Both the position numbers and the translations under genes were made by a program. The notes beneath the pieces are model-generated. The model searched no databases. It was given only the letters and a program-made list of their open reading frames with translations, and had not been told where the DNA came from. This document shows positions 5,981 to 41,373 of a DNA stretch of 64,000 nucleotides, in pieces. Position 1 is the stretch's first letter, and the number at the start of each line of letters is the position of its first letter. Source of the DNA: an uncultured Candidatus Actinomarina sp. (lineage in GTDB: Bacteria; Actinomycetota; Acidimicrobiia; Actinomarinales; Actinomarinaceae). The DNA is taken from positions 3,638 through 67,637 of the forward strand of contig CACGBK010000004.1 in the NCBI GenBank assembly GCA_902571385.1, given 5' to 3'.

Positions 5981-7822
5981 ATGTTGACGATGGAAAATAT
6001 TTTTAGTGAAATAAGTGAAAATGGAGGAAGCACTCCATGTAGGAAAGTGAATGAGATTGCTTCACGATTCCCTGAAAAAGTAGCATTTAGAGATAAAAGA
6101 TTTGGGATTTGGAGTGAAATTTCATATCAAAGTTTTTGGGAACAAGCACAATGGGTTGGTTGTGCTTTGAATTATTTTGGAGTAGATAGATTTGATAAAG
6201 CAGCAGTTCATTCAGAAAATAGACCTGAATGGATAATTGCGGATATTGGGATTCAATCTATACGTGCAATTACTGTTGGACTTTATCCAACGAATCCTCC
6301 ATCAGAAGTAAAATATTTACTTGGACATTCAGAATCAAAAATACTATTTGCAGAGGATCAAGAGCAAGTTGATAAAGCTTTAGAAGTTAAGGATGAATTA
6401 CCAAATCTTCAAAAAATTATATATTTTGAAGATAGAGGAGTAGTTGGCTACAAAGATGAAATCCTCATGTCTTGGGAAGAATTCTTATCTATTGGAAAAG
6501 AAGAGCTAGAAAAAAATAACAGTTTTGTTACTTCGAGGATGGAAGAAATTGAGACAAGCGATGTTGCTTGCTTAATTTATACATCAGGAACAACGGGTGC
6601 CCCTAAAGGTTCCATGATTTCTCATGGAAATTTAGAGTGGTGTGGATCAATTATTCCAAAACTATCTTTTACTCCCGGAATAAGCAATCCTGAATTTCTT
6701 TCTTATTTGCCAATATGTCACATATTTGGAAGATTAATAGATATTATTGTGGCTATTCATGTTATGGGAACAATCAACTTTGCAGAATCAATTGATACTG
6801 TTCAAAGAGATTTAGCAGAGGTTCAACCTTCAATGTTCCCAGCAGTTCCAAGAATTCTTGAACGCATGCATGCTGGTACTTTGGTAAGGATGAAGGATGC
6901 ATCAAGATTGAAAAAAGCTCTCTTCGGCTTAGCTTCTAAATTAGGGAACTTTTCAGCAAATAGAAGACTTGAATTTGGGGATAACGACTTATTAGCCAAA
7001 GTTACAAATTTTGTTGCACAAGTGATATGTTTTAGAGCTTTAAAAAAGAAATTAGGTCTTCTAAATGTAGATAATGCTGTATCAGGGGCCGCTCCAATAT
7101 CACCTGAAATTTTGAAATTCTTTATGAACATGGGAGTCCCTATATATGAAGGCTATGGGATGACTGAGAATAGTGCTGTAGCCACTGGGAACAAACCAGG
7201 TAGCGTTAAATTAGGAACAGTAGGTGTCCCACAGCCAGATGTTGAGATCAAACTTGCCGATGATGGTGAAATACTTGTAAGGCATCCTGGAGTTTTTCTT
7301 GGATATTATAAAAATGAAGAAGCAACTAAAGAGACAATTGATAAAGATGGATGGCTCTATACCGGCGATGTAGGTGAGTATGATGGTGAATTCTTAAAAA
7401 TTATTGATCGAAAAAAAGATATTATTATTACAAGTGGTGGAAAAAATGTTTCTCCATCTGAAATTGAAAATAATTTAAAAACTTCTCCCTATATTAAAGA
7501 GGCAATTGTAATTGGTGATGATAGAAAATTCTTGGCTTGTTTAATTGGTATTGAATATGATATTGTATCCAATTGGGCGCTCAGAAAAAATATACCTCAC
7601 ACAACATATAGAAACTTATCTGAAAACGAAGAAGTTCAAAAACTTATATGGAATGAAATTTTAAAAGCAAACAAACTTACATCAACACTTGAGATAAGAA
7701 AATTTCGAATGATCACAAAAGAACTAGATCATGAAGATGGAGATTTAACCGCTACTCAAAAAGCTAAGCGAAATGTAATTATGGAAAAATTTAGTGACTT
7801 AATCGAAGAAATGTATAAATGA
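5981..7822 (+). CDS. long-chain fatty-acid--CoA ligase (AMP-forming, ACSL/FadD15-like)
   Basis: AMP-binding motifs YTSGTTGAPKG, EGYGMTE, YTGDVG and IIDRKKDIIITSGGKNVSPSEIE. Length 613 aa. Confidence 0.85.
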   Translation: MLTMENIFSEISENGGSTPCRKVNEIASRFPEKVAFRDKRFGIWSEISYQSFWEQAQWVGCALNYFGVDRFDKAAVHSENRPEWIIADIGIQSIRAITVGLYPTNPPSEVKYLLGHSESKILFAEDQEQVDKALEVKDELPNLQKIIYFEDRGVVGYKDEILMSWEEFLSIGKEELEKNNSFVTSRMEEIETSDVACLIYTSGTTGAPKGSMISHGNLEWCGSIIPKLSFTPGISNPEFLSYLPICHIFGRLIDIIVAIHVMGTINFAESIDTVQRDLAEVQPSMFPAVPRILERMHAGTLVRMKDASRLKKALFGLASKLGNFSANRRLEFGDNDLLAKVTNFVAQVICFRALKKKLGLLNVDNAVSGAAPISPEILKFFMNMGVPIYEGYGMTENSAVATGNKPGSVKLGTVGVPQPDVEIKLADDGEILVRHPGVFLGYYKNEEATKETIDKDGWLYTGDVGEYDGEFLKIIDRKKDIIITSGGKNVSPSEIENNLKTSPYIKEAIVIGDDRKFLACLIGIEYDIVSNWALRKNIPHTTYRNLSENEEVQKLIWNEILKANKLTSTLEIRKFRMITKELDHEDGDLTATQKAKRNVIMEKFSDLIEEMYK

Positions 7823-9893: not shown

Positions 9894-11294
9894 ATGAAAC
9901 CATTGCGTAAGCAAGGAATCATAATTTTTTCAATTCTAGCCTTAGTTCTTGTTGCTTGTGGTGGAGCTACCGAAGAAACTTCTGAGGAAGAGGTAGTTGC
10001 AGAAGAAGTAACAGAAGCACTTGACTCACCAGCTGTAACAACAGCCGGCACAGTAAAAACAGGTGTTGGAATTACAGAAGAGGCTTGTCCCGAAGTTATA
10101 TCCAACATTCCAACTGGAGCAGATCCAACCAAAGGTTGTATTTATCTAGGAATGTTAAATGACTATTCAGGACCTTTCGGAGCTGCTGGGCCAGCTCTTG
10201 ATATTGGACAAAGAGCATTTTGGCTCTGGGCTAATTCAACTGGTGGAATTGGAGATTATAGTGTGGCAATTCGAGAAGGATTCGATGCGTCATACAATCC
10301 ACAAAAACATTTAGAAGGTTATAACTCATTAAAAGATTCAGTTGCAGCTTTCTCAATGTCACTTGGAACACCGCAGACATTATTTATTTTAGATAATTTA
10401 AATGAAGATGACATGGTAGCAGTACCAATGAGCTGGTGGTCAGGTTGGGCCTATAAGGGCGTAGATGCCTCTACAGTAATTGAATTCGGAACACAATATT
10501 GTGCAGACGGAATGAATGCTATGGATTGGGCATCTGCAAATGCGGGACCTCTAACAGGTGGTTTAGTTGATATAAACACTGTTGGAATTATCGGTTACGA
10601 AAGTGACTACGGTAAGGATTTCGCATTTGGAATCAAAGCAGCAGCAGCAAATGCAGGCGTTGAAGTTGCATGGGAATATTTAGCACCTCCAACAGAGTTT
10701 GATGTAACTCAAGCCGTTGGTTTACTGGTTACAAAACCAGTTGATGCTTATTTCTTAGCAACTGGATTAGCCGTAGCACCTCAAGTTGCTGGTGGAGCAG
10801 CACAACAAGGAGTCACTCCTTTTGCAATGTTCCTCGGAACATCTTACAACGATGCTTTTGTGGCTGAAGGATCAGCTGTAAAAGGTCTATTTGAATCAGG
10901 ACTCATATATGCAATGTCTTTTGGTATTGCACCTTATGAGGCTGACACTGTTGGTCACGCAACAATGAGACAAACATTGGGTCAAATAACCGATAGTGCA
11001 AGCACATTCTTCGTTGGAGGATGGGGTTCACAATATCATCTTAAAGGTGTACTTGAAGGTGCATTAAAAGGTGGAGATCTTACTAGAGCAGGTATTAGAA
11101 GAGCAGCAACAAACGTTACAGTTAGTTCTGACGGTATGATGCCTGAAAAGAAACTAGGATCTGGCTTACCTGATGTTGCAAGTACCATTACAAAACCAGA
11201 CGGAAGTGTTGGTAGTGGAGCTGTCGTAGTTAAAAAAGACTATGTAGGTCCATCCGCTGGCGCTTATGATTGGTCTGTAGGGCCTTGTTCATAA
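9894..11294 (+). CDS. ABC transporter substrate-binding lipoprotein (type I periplasmic binding fold, Liv-like)
   Basis: Signal peptide with lipobox LVAC-GG, an acidic Thr/Glu linker, and a body of about 400 aa. It is the last gene of the transporter operon and is followed by a strong terminator. Confidence 0.8.
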   Translation: MKPLRKQGIIIFSILALVLVACGGATEETSEEEVVAEEVTEALDSPAVTTAGTVKTGVGITEEACPEVISNIPTGADPTKGCIYLGMLNDYSGPFGAAGPALDIGQRAFWLWANSTGGIGDYSVAIREGFDASYNPQKHLEGYNSLKDSVAAFSMSLGTPQTLFILDNLNEDDMVAVPMSWWSGWAYKGVDASTVIEFGTQYCADGMNAMDWASANAGPLTGGLVDINTVGIIGYESDYGKDFAFGIKAAAANAGVEVAWEYLAPPTEFDVTQAVGLLVTKPVDAYFLATGLAVAPQVAGGAAQQGVTPFAMFLGTSYNDAFVAEGSAVKGLFESGLIYAMSFGIAPYEADTVGHATMRQTLGQITDSASTFFVGGWGSQYHLKGVLEGALKGGDLTRAGIRRAATNVTVSSDGMMPEKKLGSGLPDVASTITKPDGSVGSGAVVVKKDYVGPSAGAYDWSVGPCS

Positions 11295-11310: not shown

Positions 11311-11342
11311 AAAAAGAGCCGGTTTATCCGGCTCTTTTTTTA
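11311..11342 (+). terminator. rho-independent terminator after the transporter operon
   Basis: AAAAAGAGCCGG-TTTAT-CCGGCTCTTTTTTT: an 8-bp GC-rich stem (11315-11322 / 11328-11335) followed by a T-run. The flanking A-run makes it potentially bidirectional. Confidence 0.8.
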
Positions 11343-27990: not shown

Positions 27991-28659
27991 ATGAGAGATA
28001 TCAAAGTAACCAAGAATTTTATTAACTCTGAAAATACATCAGTTCTCTATGAGTCTGGAAATACAAAAGTATTAATAACAGTCTCTATCTCAGATAGAGT
28101 TCCAAGGTGGCTTGAAAACTCAGACAAGGGTTGGCTAACAGCTGAATACAACATGTTGCCTGGCTCATCTGATCAAAGAGTTTCACGAAAATCTTTTGAA
28201 GGAGGAAGGTCAAAGGAAATATCAAGACTAATTGGAAGATCACTTCGATCTGTATGTGACCTTGGAATATTAAATGGATACTCAATCACAGTCGACTGCG
28301 ATGTTCTTGATGCAGATGGAGGAACAAGAACAGCATCAATCAATGGTGCATGGATTGCACTTAATGAGACTTTCAATAACCTTGTTGATCAAAAAAAATT
28401 AGTTCAAAACCCCCTAACAAACCAAATTGCTGCATTGTCAGTTGGAATAGTTGATGGAGATTTTATTGCTGATTTAGATTATGAAAAAGATTCAAGTGCC
28501 CAAGTAGATTTAAATCTTGTACTAAATGACAACTATGAGATATTAGAAATTCAAGGGACTGCTGAGCAAAAACCATTTTCTAAAGAAGACTTAGATAAAC
28601 TTTTTGAAATGACCAAAGAAGAGGTCAATAAAGTCTTTGATGTACAAAAGAATGTATGA
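27991..28659 (+). CDS. rph: ribonuclease PH
   Basis: GWLTAEYNMLPGSS, DCDVLDADGGTRTASINGAW and EIQGTAE motifs, colinear with E. coli Rph. Confidence 0.9.
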   Translation: MRDIKVTKNFINSENTSVLYESGNTKVLITVSISDRVPRWLENSDKGWLTAEYNMLPGSSDQRVSRKSFEGGRSKEISRLIGRSLRSVCDLGILNGYSITVDCDVLDADGGTRTASINGAWIALNETFNNLVDQKKLVQNPLTNQIAALSVGIVDGDFIADLDYEKDSSAQVDLNLVLNDNYEILEIQGTAEQKPFSKEDLDKLFEMTKEEVNKVFDVQKNV

Positions 28660-29228
28660 AAATCTTATTTGCGAGTAAAAATAAGAACAAGTTCAAAGAA
28701 ATAAAAGAGATTTTTAAAGATTCAAAATTTGAAATAATATTCGATGATGTCCTTGAAGATGTTGTTGAAGATAAAGATACTATCTTAGGGAACGCTCAAA
28801 AAAAATCAGAAGAAATTTTTCTCAAGCATAACATTCCTGTCCTCTCAGATGACTCAGGACTATTTGTAGAAGCATTAGGAAATCTACCTGGAGTCTCAAC
28901 TGCTCGATATGCAGGGGAGAATGCTTCAGACCAAGAAAACATCGAAAAGATGTTAAAAAGTTTATCAAATGAAGAAAATAGAAAGGCTTTTTTTAAAACG
29001 GTCATATATTTTTTTGATGGAGAAATCAGGTTAGATACCGAAGGAACATTAAACGGTCAAATAACTACGTCTCCCCGAGGAAACAATGGTTTTGGATACG
29101 ATCCTATTTTCGAAATAGACGGATCAACCCTTGCAGAGTTAAGTTTTGAAGAAAAGACTGACATAAGTCACAGAAAAATTGCTGCTAAAAAAATGTGTGA
29201 TTTGTTAACAGATACTTTTACAGAATAA
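28656..29228 (+). CDS. rdgB: non-canonical purine NTP pyrophosphatase (RdgB/HAM1)
   Basis: SKNKNKFKE N-terminus, the GFGYDPIF motif and SHR. Follows rph in the conserved pairing, with an ATGA overlap. Confidence 0.9.
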   Translation: MKILFASKNKNKFKEIKEIFKDSKFEIIFDDVLEDVVEDKDTILGNAQKKSEEIFLKHNIPVLSDDSGLFVEALGNLPGVSTARYAGENASDQENIEKMLKSLSNEENRKAFFKTVIYFFDGEIRLDTEGTLNGQITTSPRGNNGFGYDPIFEIDGSTLAELSFEEKTDISHRKIAAKKMCDLLTDTFTE

Positions 29229-29240
29229 ATATTTTTTGTG

Positions 29241-29268
29241 TAGACAAGCTAATAAACGAAACTATTAT
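29241..29268 (+). promoter_or_regulatory. candidate promoter of the cimA leader (TAGACA-N16-TATTAT)
   Basis: The -35-like hexamer lies at 29241-29246 and the -10-like hexamer at 29263-29268. The expected TSS, about 7 nt later, coincides with the ATG at 29275. Confidence 0.35.
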
Positions 29269-29274
29269 GAATTC

Positions 29275-29301
29275 ATGATTAATTTCATAATTATTATTTA
29301 A
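29275..29301 (+). CDS. candidate leader peptide MINFIIII (Ile-rich, probably leaderless)
   Basis: ATG ATT AAT TTC ATA ATT ATT ATT TAA, read directly. It has four consecutive Ile codons before the stop and sits immediately upstream of hairpins and a terminator in front of an Ile-pathway gene. Confidence 0.5.
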   Translation: MINFIIII

Positions 29302-29324
29302 GGACAACGAACTTTTCGTTGTTA

Positions 29325-29350
29325 CCCTTGCGTTGCAGGGGTTTTTTTTT
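29325..29350 (+). terminator. intrinsic terminator inside the cimA 5' leader (attenuator terminator)
   Basis: CCCTTGC-GTT-GCAGGGG: a 7-bp stem with one G-U pair, followed by nine T (29342-29350). It lies 12 nt upstream of the cimA ATG. Confidence 0.7.
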
Positions 29351-29362
29351 GGAAGAAGAAGA

Positions 29363-30925
29363 ATGAAGATAGACATATTTGATACGACTCTAAGAGATGG
29401 CTTTCAGCAAGAAGGCATATCACCGTCTGTAAAAGATAAATTAGCTATTGCAAAGCTAATTGATGAACTAGGCGTTGATTTTATCGAAGGAGGTTGGCCT
29501 GGAGCATCACCAAAAGAGAAAGAGTTTTTTGATACTGCAAAGAAAGATTTGAATTTAAACAATGCAAAATTGGTTAGTTTTGGATCTACACGTAAATTAA
29601 ATACCAAAGTTGAAGAAGATCCCCAAGTTCAAGCATTAATTGACTCAGAAACTGAATATGTTTGTATTGTAGGAAAATCCTCAAATCTGCACATCACTAA
29701 AGCTTTAGAGACAGATGTTGACAATGCTATCTCAATGGCAGTAGACACTGTGAGATTCTTGAAGGAAAATAATCGAAAAGTATTTTTTGATGCAGAACAT
29801 TTTTTTGATGGATTAAAAGAGAATGCGGAAGTAACTCTAAAGATTCTTGATTCAGTTTTAAATGAAGGTGTTGAGTGCTTCATCTTTTGTGATACAAACG
29901 GAGGAACTCTTCCACATGAAGTTACCGAACTTTTAAATCCAATAATTGAAAAATATCCAGATCAAGAATTTGGTGTCCATTTTCAAAATGACAATGGCTG
30001 TGCTGTCACCAATTCTTTGGCAGCAGTAAATTTAGGTGTAAAGCACGTACAAGGAACAATGAACGGTTACGGGGAGAGAACAGGAAATGCTGATTTATGT
30101 ACTTTGTTACCAAACCTATCTCTCAAGATGAACCTAGAAACAGTTCCTGAAAAGTCTCTAGAAAAATTAACTCCTATTGCTAATCACATTGCTGAACTCG
30201 TAAATATCGCAATAGATTCAAGACATCCATATGTTGGGTCATCTGCATTTACTCATAAGGCTGGATTGCACGCATCAGGTATGTCAAAAGACAACACATT
30301 ATATGAGCATATCAATGCAAGCCAGGTAGGAAACTACACAAGAACTACAGTTTCAGAGTTAGCAGGCAGAGCAAGCGTCATTACAAAAGCAAAAGAGTTT
30401 AATATTGAGTTTTCAAACGATGAAGCAAAAAATTTGATTGAACAAGTACAAAACTTAGAATACGAAGGTTTTCAATATGAGGCTGCAGATGCATCTTTAT
30501 ATTTATTGATGAAAAAAATAAAAGGTGAAGAACCAGAATTTTTTTCTTTTGAGAGTTTTCGAGTTTATTCCGAAAGAAGAAATTCACAGAATGTAGTTTC
30601 TGAGGCAGTTTGCAAGATTACTGTTGAAGAAAATAGATTTGTAACAACTGGTGAGGGAGTAGGACCTGTTGATGCATTGAATAAAGCATTGAAATCTGCC
30701 TTAAAAAATAACTATCCCGATGTAGATAAAATTAAATTAACTGATTATAAAGTAAGAATTATTGATTCATCGGATGGAACAGAGGCAAAAACAAGAGTAC
30801 TTGTTGAGTTTACAGATGGAGAGATGATTTGGAGCACAATCGGTGTGCATGAAAATATTATCAATGCATCTTGGAATGCTTTGTGTGATGGTTTTAATTA
30901 TTATTTTATGGAAAGTTCATCGTAA
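29363..30925 (+). CDS. cimA: (R)-citramalate synthase (LeuA-related, Geobacter CimA type)
   Basis: MKIDIFDTTLRDGFQQEGIS...IEGGWPGASPKE...FGSTR pattern of the about 530-aa LeuA_rel/CimA family, with a C-terminal regulatory domain. The start is trimmed from the track's 29333 because that extension runs through the terminator. Confidence 0.8.
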   Translation: MKIDIFDTTLRDGFQQEGISPSVKDKLAIAKLIDELGVDFIEGGWPGASPKEKEFFDTAKKDLNLNNAKLVSFGSTRKLNTKVEEDPQVQALIDSETEYVCIVGKSSNLHITKALETDVDNAISMAVDTVRFLKENNRKVFFDAEHFFDGLKENAEVTLKILDSVLNEGVECFIFCDTNGGTLPHEVTELLNPIIEKYPDQEFGVHFQNDNGCAVTNSLAAVNLGVKHVQGTMNGYGERTGNADLCTLLPNLSLKMNLETVPEKSLEKLTPIANHIAELVNIAIDSRHPYVGSSAFTHKAGLHASGMSKDNTLYEHINASQVGNYTRTTVSELAGRASVITKAKEFNIEFSNDEAKNLIEQVQNLEYEGFQYEAADASLYLLMKKIKGEEPEFFSFESFRVYSERRNSQNVVSEAVCKITVEENRFVTTGEGVGPVDALNKALKSALKNNYPDVDKIKLTDYKVRIIDSSDGTEAKTRVLVEFTDGEMIWSTIGVHENIINASWNALCDGFNYYFMESSS

Positions 30926-30955
30926 AATTTTTATAATTACTTTAGGTAATTAAAT

Positions 30956-32902
30956 ATGTCAGAAAAAATTGAAAATCTACTTGGGGAAGATAGAACTTTT
31001 GATCCTCCTTTAAGTATCGTTGAAAATGCAAACGCTACTAAAGAATGGTTTGATTTAGCAGAAGAAGATAGATTAGCCTACTGGCAAAAACAGGCCCTTG
31101 AGAGAATTACTTGGTATAAAGAGCCAACCGAAATTTTAGATGATTCCAATGCACCTTTTTATAAATGGTTTAAAGATGGAGAATTAAATCTTTCTTACAA
31201 CTGTCTGGATCGTCATTTAGAAACAGACGGAGACAGAGTTGCATTTTACTGGGAGGGAGAACCTGGAGACACTCAAGAGATTACCTATCAGGATCTTTAT
31301 GAGAGAGTTTGTAAGTTATCCAATGGCTTAAAAGAATTAGGAGTCAAAAAAGGGGATAGAATAGCAATTTATCTCGGCATGACTCCAGAGATCGTAATTT
31401 CAATGTTGGCATGCGCAAGAATAGGTGCCGTTCATTCAGTTGTTTTTGGTGGTTTCTCCGCTGAAGCATTAGCTGATCGTATAAATGATGCAGAAGCAAA
31501 AGTAGTTATTACCGCTGATGGTGCCTGGAGAAGGGGAGATATTGTCCCTTTAAAAAAGAATGTAGATGATTCCTTGAAACTAACAGACCATATTGAAAGT
31601 GTTGTAGTCGTAAAAAGAACTAACAATGACGTAGATATGGTTGAGGGATTAGATTATTGGTACCACGATTTAGTAGACAAACAAGATGCAACATGTGAAC
31701 CAGAGGTCATGAATGCAGAAGATATGCTTTACATACTCTACACATCTGGCACTACCGCAAAACCAAAGGGAATAGTCCACACACAGGCCGGATACCTTAC
31801 CGGAGTAACAACTACACATTCAGCAGTTTTTGATGTAAAAGAGGATGATATTTACTGGTGTGCTGCTGATTGTGGATGGGTAACTGGTCATAGCTATATT
31901 GTCTATGGTCCTCTTGCTAATAAGACAACGAGTGTTATGTATGAGGGAGCACCAAACGCTCCAGATGAAAAAAGATTGTGGAGTATTGTTGAAAAATATA
32001 AAGTCAATATTTTTTACACAGCCCCAACTGCAATAAGAGCATTCATGAAGTGGGGAGTAGAACACCCTCAAGCACATGATTTATCATCTCTAAGGTTATT
32101 AGGAACAGTTGGAGAGCCAATCAATCCAGAAGCTTGGATGTGGTACCACGAAAATATTGGAAGCGAATCGTGTGCGATTGTTGATACATGGTGGCAAACT
32201 GAGACAGGATCAATCATGATCACTCCACTGCCAGGTATCACTAGTACAAAACCAGGATCTGCTTGTGGGCCTATGCCAGGAATTGACGCAATTGTTGTAG
32301 ACGAAAAAGGAAACGAAGTTTCAAAAGGAGAAGGTGGCTACCTAGCAATTAAAACACCATGGCCTTCAATGTTGAGAACAGTTTTTGGAGATGAAAAAAG
32401 ATATATCGATACCTACTGGTCAAAATATGATGGAATGTATTTTGCTGGGGATGGTGCAAAATATGACGATGACGGATATTTCTGGTTACTTGGAAGAGTT
32501 GATGACGTAATGAATATATCGGGTCATAGGATATCTACAGCTGAGGTCGAGAGCGCCCTTGTTGCACATGAGTCTGTGGCAGAAGCTGCAGTAATTGGAA
32601 GAGCAGATGAAATTTCTGGTGAGGCTATTGCTGCTTTCGTAACCTTGATTGGTGGCTTTGAAGGAAATGATGAACTGATTACAACTCTACGACAACATGT
32701 AAGTGATAAGATAGGACCTATCGCAAAACCAAAAAGTATTGTGATAACAAATGACCTTCCAAAAACAAGAAGTGGAAAAATAATGAGAAGACTACTTAAA
32801 GATATTTCAGAGGAAAGAAAACTCGGAGACGTCACAACGCTTGCAAATGCAGACATCGTTTCAGAATTACAAACCAGATCGTCAGAGTCAGCTGATGAAT
32901 GA
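30956..32902 (+). CDS. acs: acetyl-CoA synthetase (AMP-forming)
   Basis: 648 aa with [18 protein letters not shown], the conserved C-terminal [11 protein letters not shown] motif, and N-terminal [10 protein letters not shown]. Confidence 0.95.
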
Positions 32903-39807: not shown

Positions 39808-40978
39808 TGAATTTGATAAATATTTAAACTCAAAAATAGGTAAAAAAAATAAAAATTTAGATATTCTTCACAAATTTTTTGAAAAAAATCAATTAAAAAC
39901 TCTTCGAGAAAGATCAGTTTCCATTGTTGGTACTAATGGAAAAACATCATGTTCCTTTTTTTTAAATGAATTATTAATAAGAAATAATGTTGCAACATGT
40001 ATGTTTACCTCACCCCATTTGATAAAGGTCAACGAGCGAATAAAAATTAATAATATTGACATTTCAGATAAAGAACTATCTTTTTATTTAGATCAGTTAA
40101 TTAAATTTGAAGAAGATAACATTATCGAACTCGCATATTTTGAAGTAATCTTTCTTATTGCTTGTCTCCATTTTATTCGACTAGATCTTGATATTTTTAT
40201 TGTTGAGGCAGGTATTGGGGGTATGTACGATACAACGTCATTTATTAATGCTGACACCGTTTGTATGACAAATGTTGGTCTTGACCATACTGAATTGCTT
40301 GGAAATTCGTTAGATGAAATTTTTATTCAAAAAATTAACATATCAGAAAAACCTAAACAAATAATTTTTGGAGAACTTGATATATACGAAAGACACAAAG
40401 ATTATCTACATAAAAAGTTTGAAATCGATGAAAAAGCTATTTACCTTTATGATCAACAAGCTTTAAGTAACGCATCAATTGACTATGAAATGATTAATTT
40501 TTCTACATCACTTCAAGTGCTAGATGCTATTTCATACCTTTTAGACACAAAAAATGAAACAAATAATTACTCATTAAATGATTTCAAAAAGGTACCGGGA
40601 AGATTTGAAATAGTATCAATAGAACCATTAAAAATTATTGATGGTGCTCATAATGTTGAAAGCTTGAATGCTTTACTTAGTTTTTGTAGTTCTAATTCTG
40701 AAATACATGGGTTAGATATTTACATCGGCATGAAAAAGGATAAAAATACGATTGAATTTATAAAAAGGATTGTAAAAGAAAAATTCTTAAATATTTTTCT
40801 TATTGAAGATAACTCATTTTTTGCTCAAGAAAACAAAAAAGTTTTTGAAGATTTTCTGAATTCAAACGATATTTCATTCAGTACTCGCACAATTAAAGAT
40901 TTTAATCTATCAAAGAATCCATCTATATTAACGGGTAGTTTATATTTAGTTGGAGAGTACAAAAAGGAATACACATGA
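39800..40978 (+). CDS. folC: folylpolyglutamate synthase/dihydrofolate synthase (Mur ligase family)
   Basis: VGTNGKTS P-loop and DGAHN motif. The GTG start overlaps the valS stop. valS-folC-ndk synteny. Confidence 0.8.
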   Translation: MSDEFDKYLNSKIGKKNKNLDILHKFFEKNQLKTLRERSVSIVGTNGKTSCSFFLNELLIRNNVATCMFTSPHLIKVNERIKINNIDISDKELSFYLDQLIKFEEDNIIELAYFEVIFLIACLHFIRLDLDIFIVEAGIGGMYDTTSFINADTVCMTNVGLDHTELLGNSLDEIFIQKINISEKPKQIIFGELDIYERHKDYLHKKFEIDEKAIYLYDQQALSNASIDYEMINFSTSLQVLDAISYLLDTKNETNNYSLNDFKKVPGRFEIVSIEPLKIIDGAHNVESLNALLSFCSSNSEIHGLDIYIGMKKDKNTIEFIKRIVKEKFLNIFLIEDNSFFAQENKKVFEDFLNSNDISFSTRTIKDFNLSKNPSILTGSLYLVGEYKKEYT

Positions 40979-41373
40979 AAACTTTTTTTATGGTTAAGCC
41001 AGACGGAGTAAAAAGAAATATTGTAGGTCAAGTCATTGATAGAGTTGAGCAAGAAGGTTTTAAAATCTCAAAGATGAAAATGATGACTATAAGTAGTGAA
41101 TTAGCTGAAGAACATTATGGAGAGCATAAAGACAAACCTTTCTTTCAAGATTTAGTGTCATTTATTACTAGTGGTCCTGTAGTAGCAATGGAGGTTGAAG
41201 GGGAAGATGTAGTTAGTGAAGTAAGAAGGATTATGGGTGCAACAAATCCTTCAGATGCAGACCCTGGAACAATTAGAGCAGATTTTGCTACTAAATTAGA
41301 AGAAAATGTTGTCCATGGTTCAGATTCAGAAGAAAGTGCTGAAAGAGAATTAGGCCTTTTCTTCAACAATTAA
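40975..41373 (+). CDS. ndk: nucleoside-diphosphate kinase
   Basis: FFMVKPDGV, GATNP and NVVHGSDS (active-site His) motifs. Confidence 0.93.
   Translation: MKTFFMVKPDGVKRNIVGQVIDRVEQEGFKISKMKMMTISSELAEEHYGEHKDKPFFQDLVSFITSGPVVAMEVEGEDVVSEVRRIMGATNPSDADPGTIRADFATKLEENVVHGSDSEESAERELGLFFNN

Follow-up and report, generated by a model that had tools for sequence, protein, structure and literature searches.

In the 64-kb window of DNA from Candidatus Actinomarina that was analyzed here (GC content about 33%), the spacer upstream of the citramalate synthase gene (cimA) carries a short isoleucine-rich open reading frame (ORF), a hairpin (H1) and an intrinsic terminator (T). Judging from the sequences of the window and its relatives, it is likely that these parts form a functional isoleucine-responsive leader-peptide transcription attenuator, which acts at T and governs cimA. 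What was directly observed are the elements themselves, the order and close spacing in which they occur, and the fact that they are conserved. In addition, we infer that H1 reads the position of the ribosome, that folded H1 opposes T and that the signal is the charging of the isoleucine tRNA (Ile-tRNA). CimA is the committed enzyme of the pyruvate (threonine-independent) route to isoleucine. The following elements were located (window coordinates):

29241 to 29268, plus strand: candidate promoter consisting of a -35 box (TAGACA, 29241-29246), a 16-nt spacer and a -10 box (TATTAT, 29263-29268), with a consensus match of 10/12
29275 to 29301, plus strand: leader ORF MINFIIII plus TAA, predicted to be leaderless, without Shine-Dalgarno sequence
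29287 to 29298, plus strand: putative regulatory run of four isoleucine codons (ATA ATT ATT ATT), which abuts the stop codon
29303 to 29323, plus strand: hairpin H1, GACAACGAA-CTT-TTCGTTGTT, 9 bp including a G29303-U29323 wobble, -9.1 kcal/mol
29324 to 29350, plus strand: intrinsic terminator T plus T9, stem ACCCTTGC-GTT-GCAGGGGT at 29324-29342, 8 bp, -11.6 kcal/mol, detected by terminator scan
29351 to 29362, plus strand: purine-rich spacer GGAAGAAGAAGA, likely the cimA ribosome-binding site, variable among Actinomarina and GGAG in high-GC relatives
29363 to 30925, plus strand: cimA, (R)-citramalate synthase, the putatively regulated gene (TIGR00977); homologues align from residue 1 of the ATG-29363 start
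30956 to 32902, plus strand: acs, acetate--CoA ligase (NF001208, 1019.8 bits), 30 nt 3' of cimA

The original prediction, which was made from the letters of this DNA, had listed the promoter, the mini-ORF, the hairpin, the terminator with its T9 tract, two CGTTG repeats (29317 and 29331) and a 134-nt spacer. When we read the sequence again, every one of these elements was present and all coordinates were correct. The spacer extends from the rdgB stop at 29228 to the cimA ATG at 29363, and the naming of the two flanking genes was confirmed by family models: the upstream ORF is rdgB/HAM1 (TIGR00042, 164.8 bits vs. a cutoff of 145) and the downstream ORF encodes citramalate synthase (TIGR00977, 626.7 bits vs. 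a cutoff of 450). Five of the eight leader codons (ATG ATT AAT TTC ATA ATT ATT ATT, followed by TAA) specify isoleucine, and the A of the leader ATG at 29275 is the seventh base past the -10 box (6 nt between). H1 begins 4 nt past the first base of the leader stop codon, and the arms of its 8-bp core, ACAACGAA and TTCGTTGT (29304-29311 and 29315-29322), enclose the loop CTT. The core of T reads CCCTTGC-GTT-GCAGGGG (29325-29341) with one U-G pair, and T9 covers 29342-29350. In the minimum-energy fold of 29270-29362 (-24.6 kcal/mol, z = -3.7 vs. dinucleotide shuffles), the two hairpins stand side by side.

ATH codons are common in a window with a GC content of about 33%, and T is located about 96 nt past the rdgB stop codon. 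These facts would suit a chance explanation, according to which an AT-rich spacer happens to supply isoleucine codons and T merely ends the upstream acn-pdxH-rph-rdgB operon. The original prediction had itself cautioned that isoleucine codons may occur by chance in such DNA, which is a fair caveat, but it fails on inspection of the window and of high-GC relatives. Only four (ATH)4 sites are present on both strands of the window, and exactly one ATG mini-ORF of up to 15 codons (both strands, 128 kb in total) contains four consecutive isoleucines, which is MINFIIII. Moreover, there is a promoter between rdgB and the leader, and its 10/12 match is the joint best within 27-33 kb. In 60 kb, only two intrinsic terminators were convincing, namely T and one at a gene end (11311-11339).

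Related cimA loci were collected by a CimA protein scan with one genome per species and by an additional metagenome scan, and these loci carry L-numbers (L001, L022 etc.). CimA of L004 is 99% identical to the window protein, those of three other Actinomarina species are 76-79% identical and those of further Acidimicrobiia about 50-55%. In the other Actinomarina species, we found the same order of promoter, presumably leaderless ATG, isoleucine run, stop codon, H1 and T upstream of cimA. Their leaders read MKKIIIII or MKIIGIIIM before the stop codon, and these ORFs are followed by a CAACG/CGTTG hairpin and then by CCCTTGC-NNN-GCAAGGG plus T9. The metagenome scan added the leaders MMNIIIII and MQKIIIIV as well as relatives that are 91% identical to the window. 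In an alignment of 12 Actinomarina sequences the ATG is invariant, and the isoleucine codons, the H1 core, the T stem and T9 are invariant or nearly so. The spacer between the promoter boxes, the loops of the two hairpins and the nucleotides leading up to the cimA ATG vary. The T stem and T9 are unchanged except for U-A to U-G changes, and the top pair of H1 switches from A-U to U-A or U-G, which constitutes modest covariation. TAGACA and a -10 box of the TAnTAT type are kept in nine of the 12 sequences.

In three of these species (L001, L002, L003) the leader stays with cimA and not with rdgB, since an extra gene separates rdgB from the leader. This additional ORF of about 230 amino acids (L001 ~2230-2930, L003 ~2233-2930, L002 ~1896-2640) has a hydrophobic C-terminal end, which is consistent with a membrane protein, and its stop codon overlaps the leader promoter.

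The same arrangement was found in Acidimicrobiia with a high GC content (60-72%). Isoleucine codons are rare in such genomes, and yet 31 of 75 loci carry a mini-ORF 100-160 nt upstream of cimA that ends with III, IIII or IIIII plus 0-2 codons (for example MFMPVAIIIIV, MTTNPTWTIIIIE, MNGPATSIIIII and MKATSTAIIIID). When we quantified the density of (ATH)3 in these 75 loci, we obtained 2.49/kb for the 200 nt upstream of cimA vs. 0.017/kb elsewhere (both strands), which is an about 146-fold enrichment. Genomes and metagenomes yielded 62 distinct leader regions, about 49 of them high-GC versions, and about a hundred related Acidimicrobiia sequences carry the predicted element. The high-GC promoter reads TTGAC-N17/18-CATACT, and its -10 box ends about 8-11 nt before the leader ATG. 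For 50 of 61 leaders, the distance from the start of the -35 box to this ATG is 34-41 nt, and the conserved spacing between promoter and ATG fits a leaderless start. Five loci with a cimA leader (L048, L049, L052, L027, L032) come from metagenome-assembled genomes labelled Acidobacteriota, Armatimonadetes or Verrucomicrobiales. It may be that these contigs were binned wrongly, or that the element is not limited to Actinomycetota.

With respect to the leader peptide, the ORF comprises eight codons in the window and usually 10-14 codons in high-GC loci, with a few leaders of 16-20 codons. The relatives have a run of 3-5 isoleucine codons, which is separated from the stop by 0-2 codons; the gap is exactly one codon in 45 of the 49 high-GC leaders. 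Variation inside the runs is confined to third codon positions. Thus, the start codon, the isoleucine run and the position of the stop are kept from 33% GC to 72% GC, and the other leader residues are not.

Several minor features of the high-GC leaders were also recorded. Although TGA usually predominates among the stop codons of high-GC genomes, 40 of the 49 leaders end with TAG, and most leaders have D, P, T or E as their last residue. The rare ATT codons account for 29% of the isoleucine runs. The stop codon bias, the last residues and the ATT codons suggest selection for slow decoding and for slow release at the foot of H1. Threonine makes up 28% of the residues before the isoleucine run (L005-L128; e.g., L012 2889-2930, L103 ~1077-1121), as illustrated by MTGSGTTTTTIIIT and MARTTTTIIIIE; the Actinomarina leaders are without threonine and are K/N-rich instead.

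The location of the run, which is always C-terminal and next to the stop codon, and the combination of TAG with a D, P, T or E residue suggesting slow release would also suit a nascent-peptide arrest similar to TnaC or SpeFL. In such a system a peptide ending with III-X would sense free isoleucine in the exit tunnel and would arrest the ribosome at the stop codon. We consider this very improbable, since the peptides comprise only 8-14 residues, only the isoleucine run is conserved and the residues preceding it differ completely between the clades (K/N-rich vs. T-rich). In addition, runs of cognate codons are a hallmark of sensors of tRNA charging.

Similar regularity was observed downstream of the leader ORF. 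In all 61 leaders H1 begins within 0-5 nt of the first stop codon base, the linker between H1 and T comprises 0-7 nt (mode of 2-3 nt in high-GC loci, 0 nt in Actinomarina) and a U-rich tract follows T. In high-GC loci, the order after T is U-rich tract, GGAG and cimA start. A MAFFT alignment of all 61 leaders for RNAalifold recovered T only and left H1 unaligned; in its place, we used an alignment of 25 sequences that begins at the stop codon (A2) and a covariance model. In A2, 95.7% of the cells are paired, nine of the 14 pairs show compensatory changes and none of 500 shuffles reached the observed values. It can be seen that both hairpins covary. The comparison of the cimA upstream regions of relatives, which had been suggested with the original prediction, showed a conserved isoleucine run, hairpin covariation and a T-tract, also where the upstream gene differs. 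The frequent U-G wobbles make H1 and T strand-specific, and they are for this reason better understood as RNA structures than as a DNA operator. On DNA, H1 would be an imperfect inverted repeat, and an operator palindrome at this site is unlikely.

As conserved stem-loops without an alternative fold, H1 and T might still be an RNA element that binds a protein or another trans-acting factor, with the mini-ORF being incidental. This scenario is very improbable, marginally more so than peptide arrest. The structure of H1 is kept across the clades, but its sequence and its loop are not, and no Rfam family match was obtained. Moreover, an incidental ORF does not explain why its start, frame, isoleucine run and stop position are conserved and why the run varies at third codon positions only.

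The Ile codons were then left out of the comparison. A covariance model covering the stop codon through T (R1) was run on the window and on 160 loci. At E<1e-3, 58 of 76 high-GC genome loci gave matches upstream of cimA on the cimA strand, and the new matches again follow short ORFs, most of which end with Ile or Val/Ile runs (a few are degenerate: L046, L054). About 20 matches were located some 2 kb upstream of cimA in loci that do not carry an isoleucine run beside cimA. The leaders preceding these distant matches are mostly of the Val/Ile type (MRPQTAAVIIIE, MGQHHRVIIIS, MSMTAQAVIIIV, MAKTQFVIII), and in the two loci in which the intervening genes were identified (L045, L068), they are leuB and ilvE. 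The sister element (L045 726-825, L068 873-965, L029 833-930 and about 17 further loci) has the same H1, a different terminator arm (GACCGTCCAC...GTGGGCGGTTTT) and leaders that are presumably leaderless. From these comparisons it appears that one design heads either cimA alone or a leuB-ilvE-cimA operon, and that the Ile-only leader of the window represents one branch of a family that spans the Acidimicrobiia. With R1, the window itself reached only 12.4 bits (E = 0.28), which is due to the fact that the model was built from high-GC sequences. The link between low-GC and high-GC versions rests on the shared architecture, on the similar T arm (CCCTTGC vs. CCCTTCGC) and on stepwise Actinomarina variants, not on the R1 score. 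In L059 we detected a second leader with an H1-T element downstream of cimA (6469-6573); it has the mixed leader MTNTPLTTVLLIT and precedes a 316-aa ORF, for which no NCBIfam match was found.

Taken together, the high-GC leaders, the enrichment of isoleucine triplets upstream of cimA at 60-72% GC and the matches of the Ile-free model effectively refute the chance explanation.

A run of isoleucine codons that is located beside a stop codon and followed by a terminator points to attenuation mediated by the ribosome, with the charging of Ile-tRNA being sensed, and the geometry identifies H1 as the element that would read the position of the ribosome. According to this model, transcription starts at or a few bases from the leader ATG (29275), and the leader would be translated as leaderless mRNA by the first ribosome that loads on the nascent 5' end. 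When Ile-tRNA is plentiful, the ribosome should pass the four isoleucine codons and reach the stop at the foot of H1. There, it would cover and unwind the 5' arm of H1, T would form behind the RNA polymerase and the transcript would then end in T9, short of cimA (H1 unwound, OFF). When Ile-tRNA is scarce, the ribosome would stall in the run, and with the first isoleucine codon in its A site, its leading edge should be located approximately at the stop codon. The stalled ribosome would leave H1 folded and termination at T would be relieved (H1 folded, ON). Expression of cimA, possibly of cimA-acs, would be adjusted to the supply of charged tRNA-Ile. The assignment of folded H1 to the ON state fits the stop codon in the H1 foot, the very short linker, the bias toward TAG and toward certain last residues and the threonine codons. 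In fact, these threonine codons could register a threonine shortage, because in the model any stall before the last two codons leaves H1 folded. If so, threonine shortage may also derepress the threonine-independent route to isoleucine. The two types of targets, cimA alone and leuB-ilvE-cimA, fit this picture, since all of these genes serve the pyruvate route to isoleucine.

As to the second gene, acs adjoins cimA in all Actinomarina loci that reach far enough (L001-L004, L081-L088), with a gap of about 30-80 nt (30 in the window). This adjacency is absent in the three high-GC relatives that were checked. Acetyl-CoA is a substrate of CimA. Judging by the gene order, acs may be co-transcribed with cimA and hence be under the same isoleucine attenuator. 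A promoter-like site (TGGAAA-N17-TATAAT) is located near the end of cimA at 30909-30937. Downstream of acs, a cluster of five tRNA genes is present in L001 and L003 (7055-7553).

H1 and T share no nucleotides; they are adjacent, 0-7 nt and mostly 0-3 nt apart. The original prediction had proposed two alternative pairings, which our results do not support. One was an extension of H1 by AAGG:CCTT into the terminator, but in the window this gains no more than about 1-1.7 kcal/mol, and it is not conserved: the closest relatives L081 and L083 have AAGA and AATG instead, and it is also absent in L084 and most of the family. The other was pairing of CAACG with the second CGTTG, which is located in the loop of T. 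Here, the resulting helix reaches -2.7 kcal/mol vs. -9.1 kcal/mol for H1, and the second CGTTG is missing in L001, L002, L003, L084, L086, L087 and L142.

A number of further results weigh against our interpretation. When a ribosome was masked at the first isoleucine codon, the last isoleucine codon or the stop codon, as the original prediction had advised for the detection of mutually exclusive folds, T stayed in the minimum-energy fold in nearly all of 35 leaders, and L052 with the last isoleucine codon masked was the sole exception seen. When the leader, the arms of H1 and the arms of T were combined in all eight ways with RNAduplex, the mean z-values were between -0.25 and +0.87, which is no better than shuffles. 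Among them, the classical 2:3 pairing of the H1 3' arm with the T 5' arm (mean z of +0.87) was less complementary than chance, and the remaining pairings (leader with the T 5' or 3' arm, H1 5' arm with either T arm, H1 3' arm with the T 3' arm, leader with H1) ranged from -0.25 to +0.4. Strong pairing was restricted to isolated cases (L023/L026, L048/49/52, L016/L017) and is not general. We also rejected an interaction in the style of ilvB-II between the loop of H1 and the 3' arm of T (-1.39 vs. -1.56 kcal/mol for shuffled loops). In transcripts ending before the T 3' arm, the T 5' arm was unpaired in most cases and the median pairing gain was 0 kcal/mol. Thus, a mutually exclusive antiterminator that shares nucleotides with the terminator, which is a defining feature of leader-peptide attenuators, was tested for and not found in these leaders. 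Finally, changing the candidate regulatory codons of the Streptomyces coelicolor ilvB leader was reportedly without effect on regulation (PMC1262725).

We prefer, tentatively and at clearly less than even odds, a steric mechanism in which H1 lying against the foot of T would keep the last pairs of T from closing in the RNA exit channel of the polymerase. A rigid helix only 0-3 nt away could not enter this channel, so that either H1 would fray or T would stay incomplete. In Actinomarina the foot of H1 consists of A-U and G-U pairs, so that fraying is cheap. For the window itself, the steric variant is weaker for this reason, since fraying of a weak H1 foot would cost little, and this must be counted among the points against our interpretation. 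A more general proposal is that of an adjacency antiterminator, which an entire bacterial class would employ for the isoleucine pathway. Here, a hairpin at the foot of T would block T sterically or via the exit channel without any competing pairing, and a ribosome at a stop codon embedded in the hairpin foot would only unwind this hairpin. We regard such a class-wide mode as conceivable but rather doubtful. Other possibilities are an effect dependent on NusA or NusG at the U tracts, which are often interrupted in high-GC loci, or a role of H1 mainly as pause hairpin that synchronizes the ribosome with the polymerase. When we looked for the consensus of hairpin pauses, we observed only a pyrimidine-rich stretch 10-12 nt past H1 with a G at +12 in 48% of the sequences. 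Ribosome bypassing over H1 in the style of T4 gene 60 was also considered, and inspection by eye revealed no matching take-off and landing codons.

Since T forms in nearly every modelled ribosome state and no competing structure was found, the regulated step might not be termination at all. In such a scenario, the leader would sense Ile-tRNA, T would be a fixed and leaky terminator that also ends the rph-rdgB transcript, and leader and H1 would control stability, processing or translation of the cimA mRNA. There is a precedent in mycobacteria, where leaderless polycysteine short ORFs act on translation (10.1101/834739). However, neither the leader nor H1 is complementary to downstream partners, the ribosome-binding site of cimA is located beyond T and outside H1, and a linker of 0-7 nt between H1 and T as well as a conserved U tract would be hard to explain. 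Control at a step other than termination is therefore improbable, although less so than peptide arrest or a trans-acting factor. We continue to favor attenuation at T.

The element shares several properties with leader-peptide attenuators. Its leader is rich in cognate codons (five of eight are Ile in the window, and runs of 3-5 occur in the 62 regions), an intrinsic terminator is located between the leader ORF and the structural gene, and it is the ORF frame and the regulatory codons, not the nucleotide sequence, that are kept in relatives. Together, the Ile-run leader, the hairpin and the terminator conserved upstream of cimA support the earlier idea of a leaderless attenuator that senses isoleucine codons. 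In its composition, the element would work like a leader-peptide attenuator except for the shared-nucleotide antiterminator, and it appears to be no member of any named family. With Rfam 15, the cis-regulatory families of which include Thr_leader, Leu_leader, His_leader, Trp_leader, T-box and ilvB-associated motifs, no relevant match was obtained even at E up to 10 (window 28000-31000; L022 2700-3100; L045 600-1000), and no relevant family reached its gathering score in 19 whole loci.

Enterobacterial attenuators such as ilvL (ilvGMEDA), ivbL (ilvBN), thrL (thrABC), trpL and hisL resemble the cimA element in that a short ORF rich in codons for the product and then a terminator precede biosynthetic genes. 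In these systems the position of the ribosome decides on termination, which is likewise proposed for the cimA element. E. coli thrL mixes threonine and isoleucine codons, as the high-GC cimA leaders do. In contrast, the enterobacterial leader ORFs are led by a Shine-Dalgarno sequence and involve overlapping 1:2, 2:3 and 3:4 structures, whereas the cimA leader is predicted to be leaderless, comprises 8-14 codons and lacks a detectable 2:3 antiterminator. Neither at the sequence level nor with covariance models did we detect any similarity to the leader families of Rfam. A leader-peptide attenuator without RNA antiterminator is known from E. coli pyrBI, where the leader ORF extends across the terminator and the translating ribosome directly obstructs the hairpin. 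In the cimA element, about 25-30 nt including H1 separate the end of the ORF from T, and physical interference would need to be relayed by H1.

Within the same phylum, the actinobacterial ilvB leaders are the closest systems. They also combine an upstream ORF (uORF) containing Ile/Val/Leu codons with a hairpin and a U-tract terminator, and the VIIIx endings of the Acidimicrobiia leuB-ilvE-cimA leaders look like relatives of this kind. Seliverstov et al. (2005) described candidate leader peptides of actinobacterial ilvB 'with terminators but missing components' (PMC1262725). The ilvB1 attenuator of M. tuberculosis has been described as a uORF at whose stop codon the ribosome covers an anti-terminator hairpin and thereby lets the terminator form (PMC13236596), which is a precedent for the layout proposed for the cimA element. 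In the Corynebacterium ilvB-II motif, the P1 loop pairs with the 3' shoulder of P2a (PMC10272879). The ilvB leaders control ilvB(N)C, contain mixed codons for branched-chain amino acids, have not been reported to be leaderless (M. tuberculosis has a long 5' leader) and are drawn with mutually exclusive structures, which in M. tuberculosis are an antiterminator and a terminator that overlap. Going by these published descriptions, the cimA element is set apart: its cimA-only leaders are Ile-only without Val or Leu, it precedes another committed step and it fails the pairing tests.

Two other actinobacterial elements are similar in part. The mycobacterial polycysteine short ORFs pair their tract with the Shine-Dalgarno region of the next gene and exert translational control without a terminator (10.1101/834739). 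Like the predicted cimA leader, they are leaderless, are located at the 5' end of a biosynthetic transcript and carry near their 3' end a run of cognate codons that senses charged tRNA (a prediction for cimA); unlike in these ORFs, a canonical terminator is present in the cimA element, and its leader was not found to pair in a conserved manner with elements further downstream. The LEU element upstream of actinobacterial leuA is a pseudoknot without terminator, the basal stem of which pairs the Leu codons with the leuA Shine-Dalgarno box (PMC1262725). It also precedes a gene of the LeuA/CimA family in Actinobacteria and has a leader ORF with a run of cognate codons, but the cimA element differs from it by its isoleucine codons, by its two simple hairpins with terminator and by the lack of pairing with the Shine-Dalgarno region.

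Full-text literature searches retrieved no description of a leader peptide, an attenuator or any other RNA-level control of cimA, which agrees with the original prediction, where no earlier description for this gene or this lineage was known. As far as is known, control of cimA consists of feedback inhibition of the enzyme. Leader-peptide attenuation of genes for branched-chain amino acids is classical, and its occurrence at cimA is not surprising in principle. The predicted attenuator would add control of gene expression to the citramalate pathway, conserved across Acidimicrobiia including the uncultured marine Candidatus Actinomarina. Small low-GC genomes such as that of Actinomarina are expected to hold few protein regulators, and a cis-acting switch of about 90 nt can operate without any. 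From a mechanistic point of view, about a hundred natural variants of a minimal attenuator (a presumably leaderless ORF of 8-14 codons plus two hairpins) are available, and the usual antiterminator was found in none of them. They would be a clean test case for how the position of the ribosome is passed on to the RNA polymerase, and the architecture could expose a mode of antitermination that does not involve competition for base pairs. This is also relevant to an ambiguity that has long surrounded the actinobacterial leader peptides 'with terminators but missing components' (PMC1262725). For practical purposes, the isoleucine run together with H1-T may serve as marker that distinguishes cimA from leuA in the annotation of metagenomes.

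Some minor observations concern other parts of the loci. In L030, an ALIL pseudoknot, which is a frameshift element of insertion sequences, was detected on the minus strand at 7276-7394 (83.5 bits). In the window, a mini-ORF ending with ILLLN at 41255 was considered as a possible second attenuator and turned out to be an artefact, as it is located out of frame inside an ndk-like gene upstream of mreB. This ndk-like ORF (40976-41373, MKTFFMVKPDGVKRN...) occupies the apparent gap between folC and mreB. The terminator at 11311-11339 is the strongest canonical intrinsic terminator of the window; it has a 12-bp stem (AAAAAGAGCCGG...CCGGCTCTTTTT) and is located 17 nt past the stop codon of the ORF at 9894-11294.

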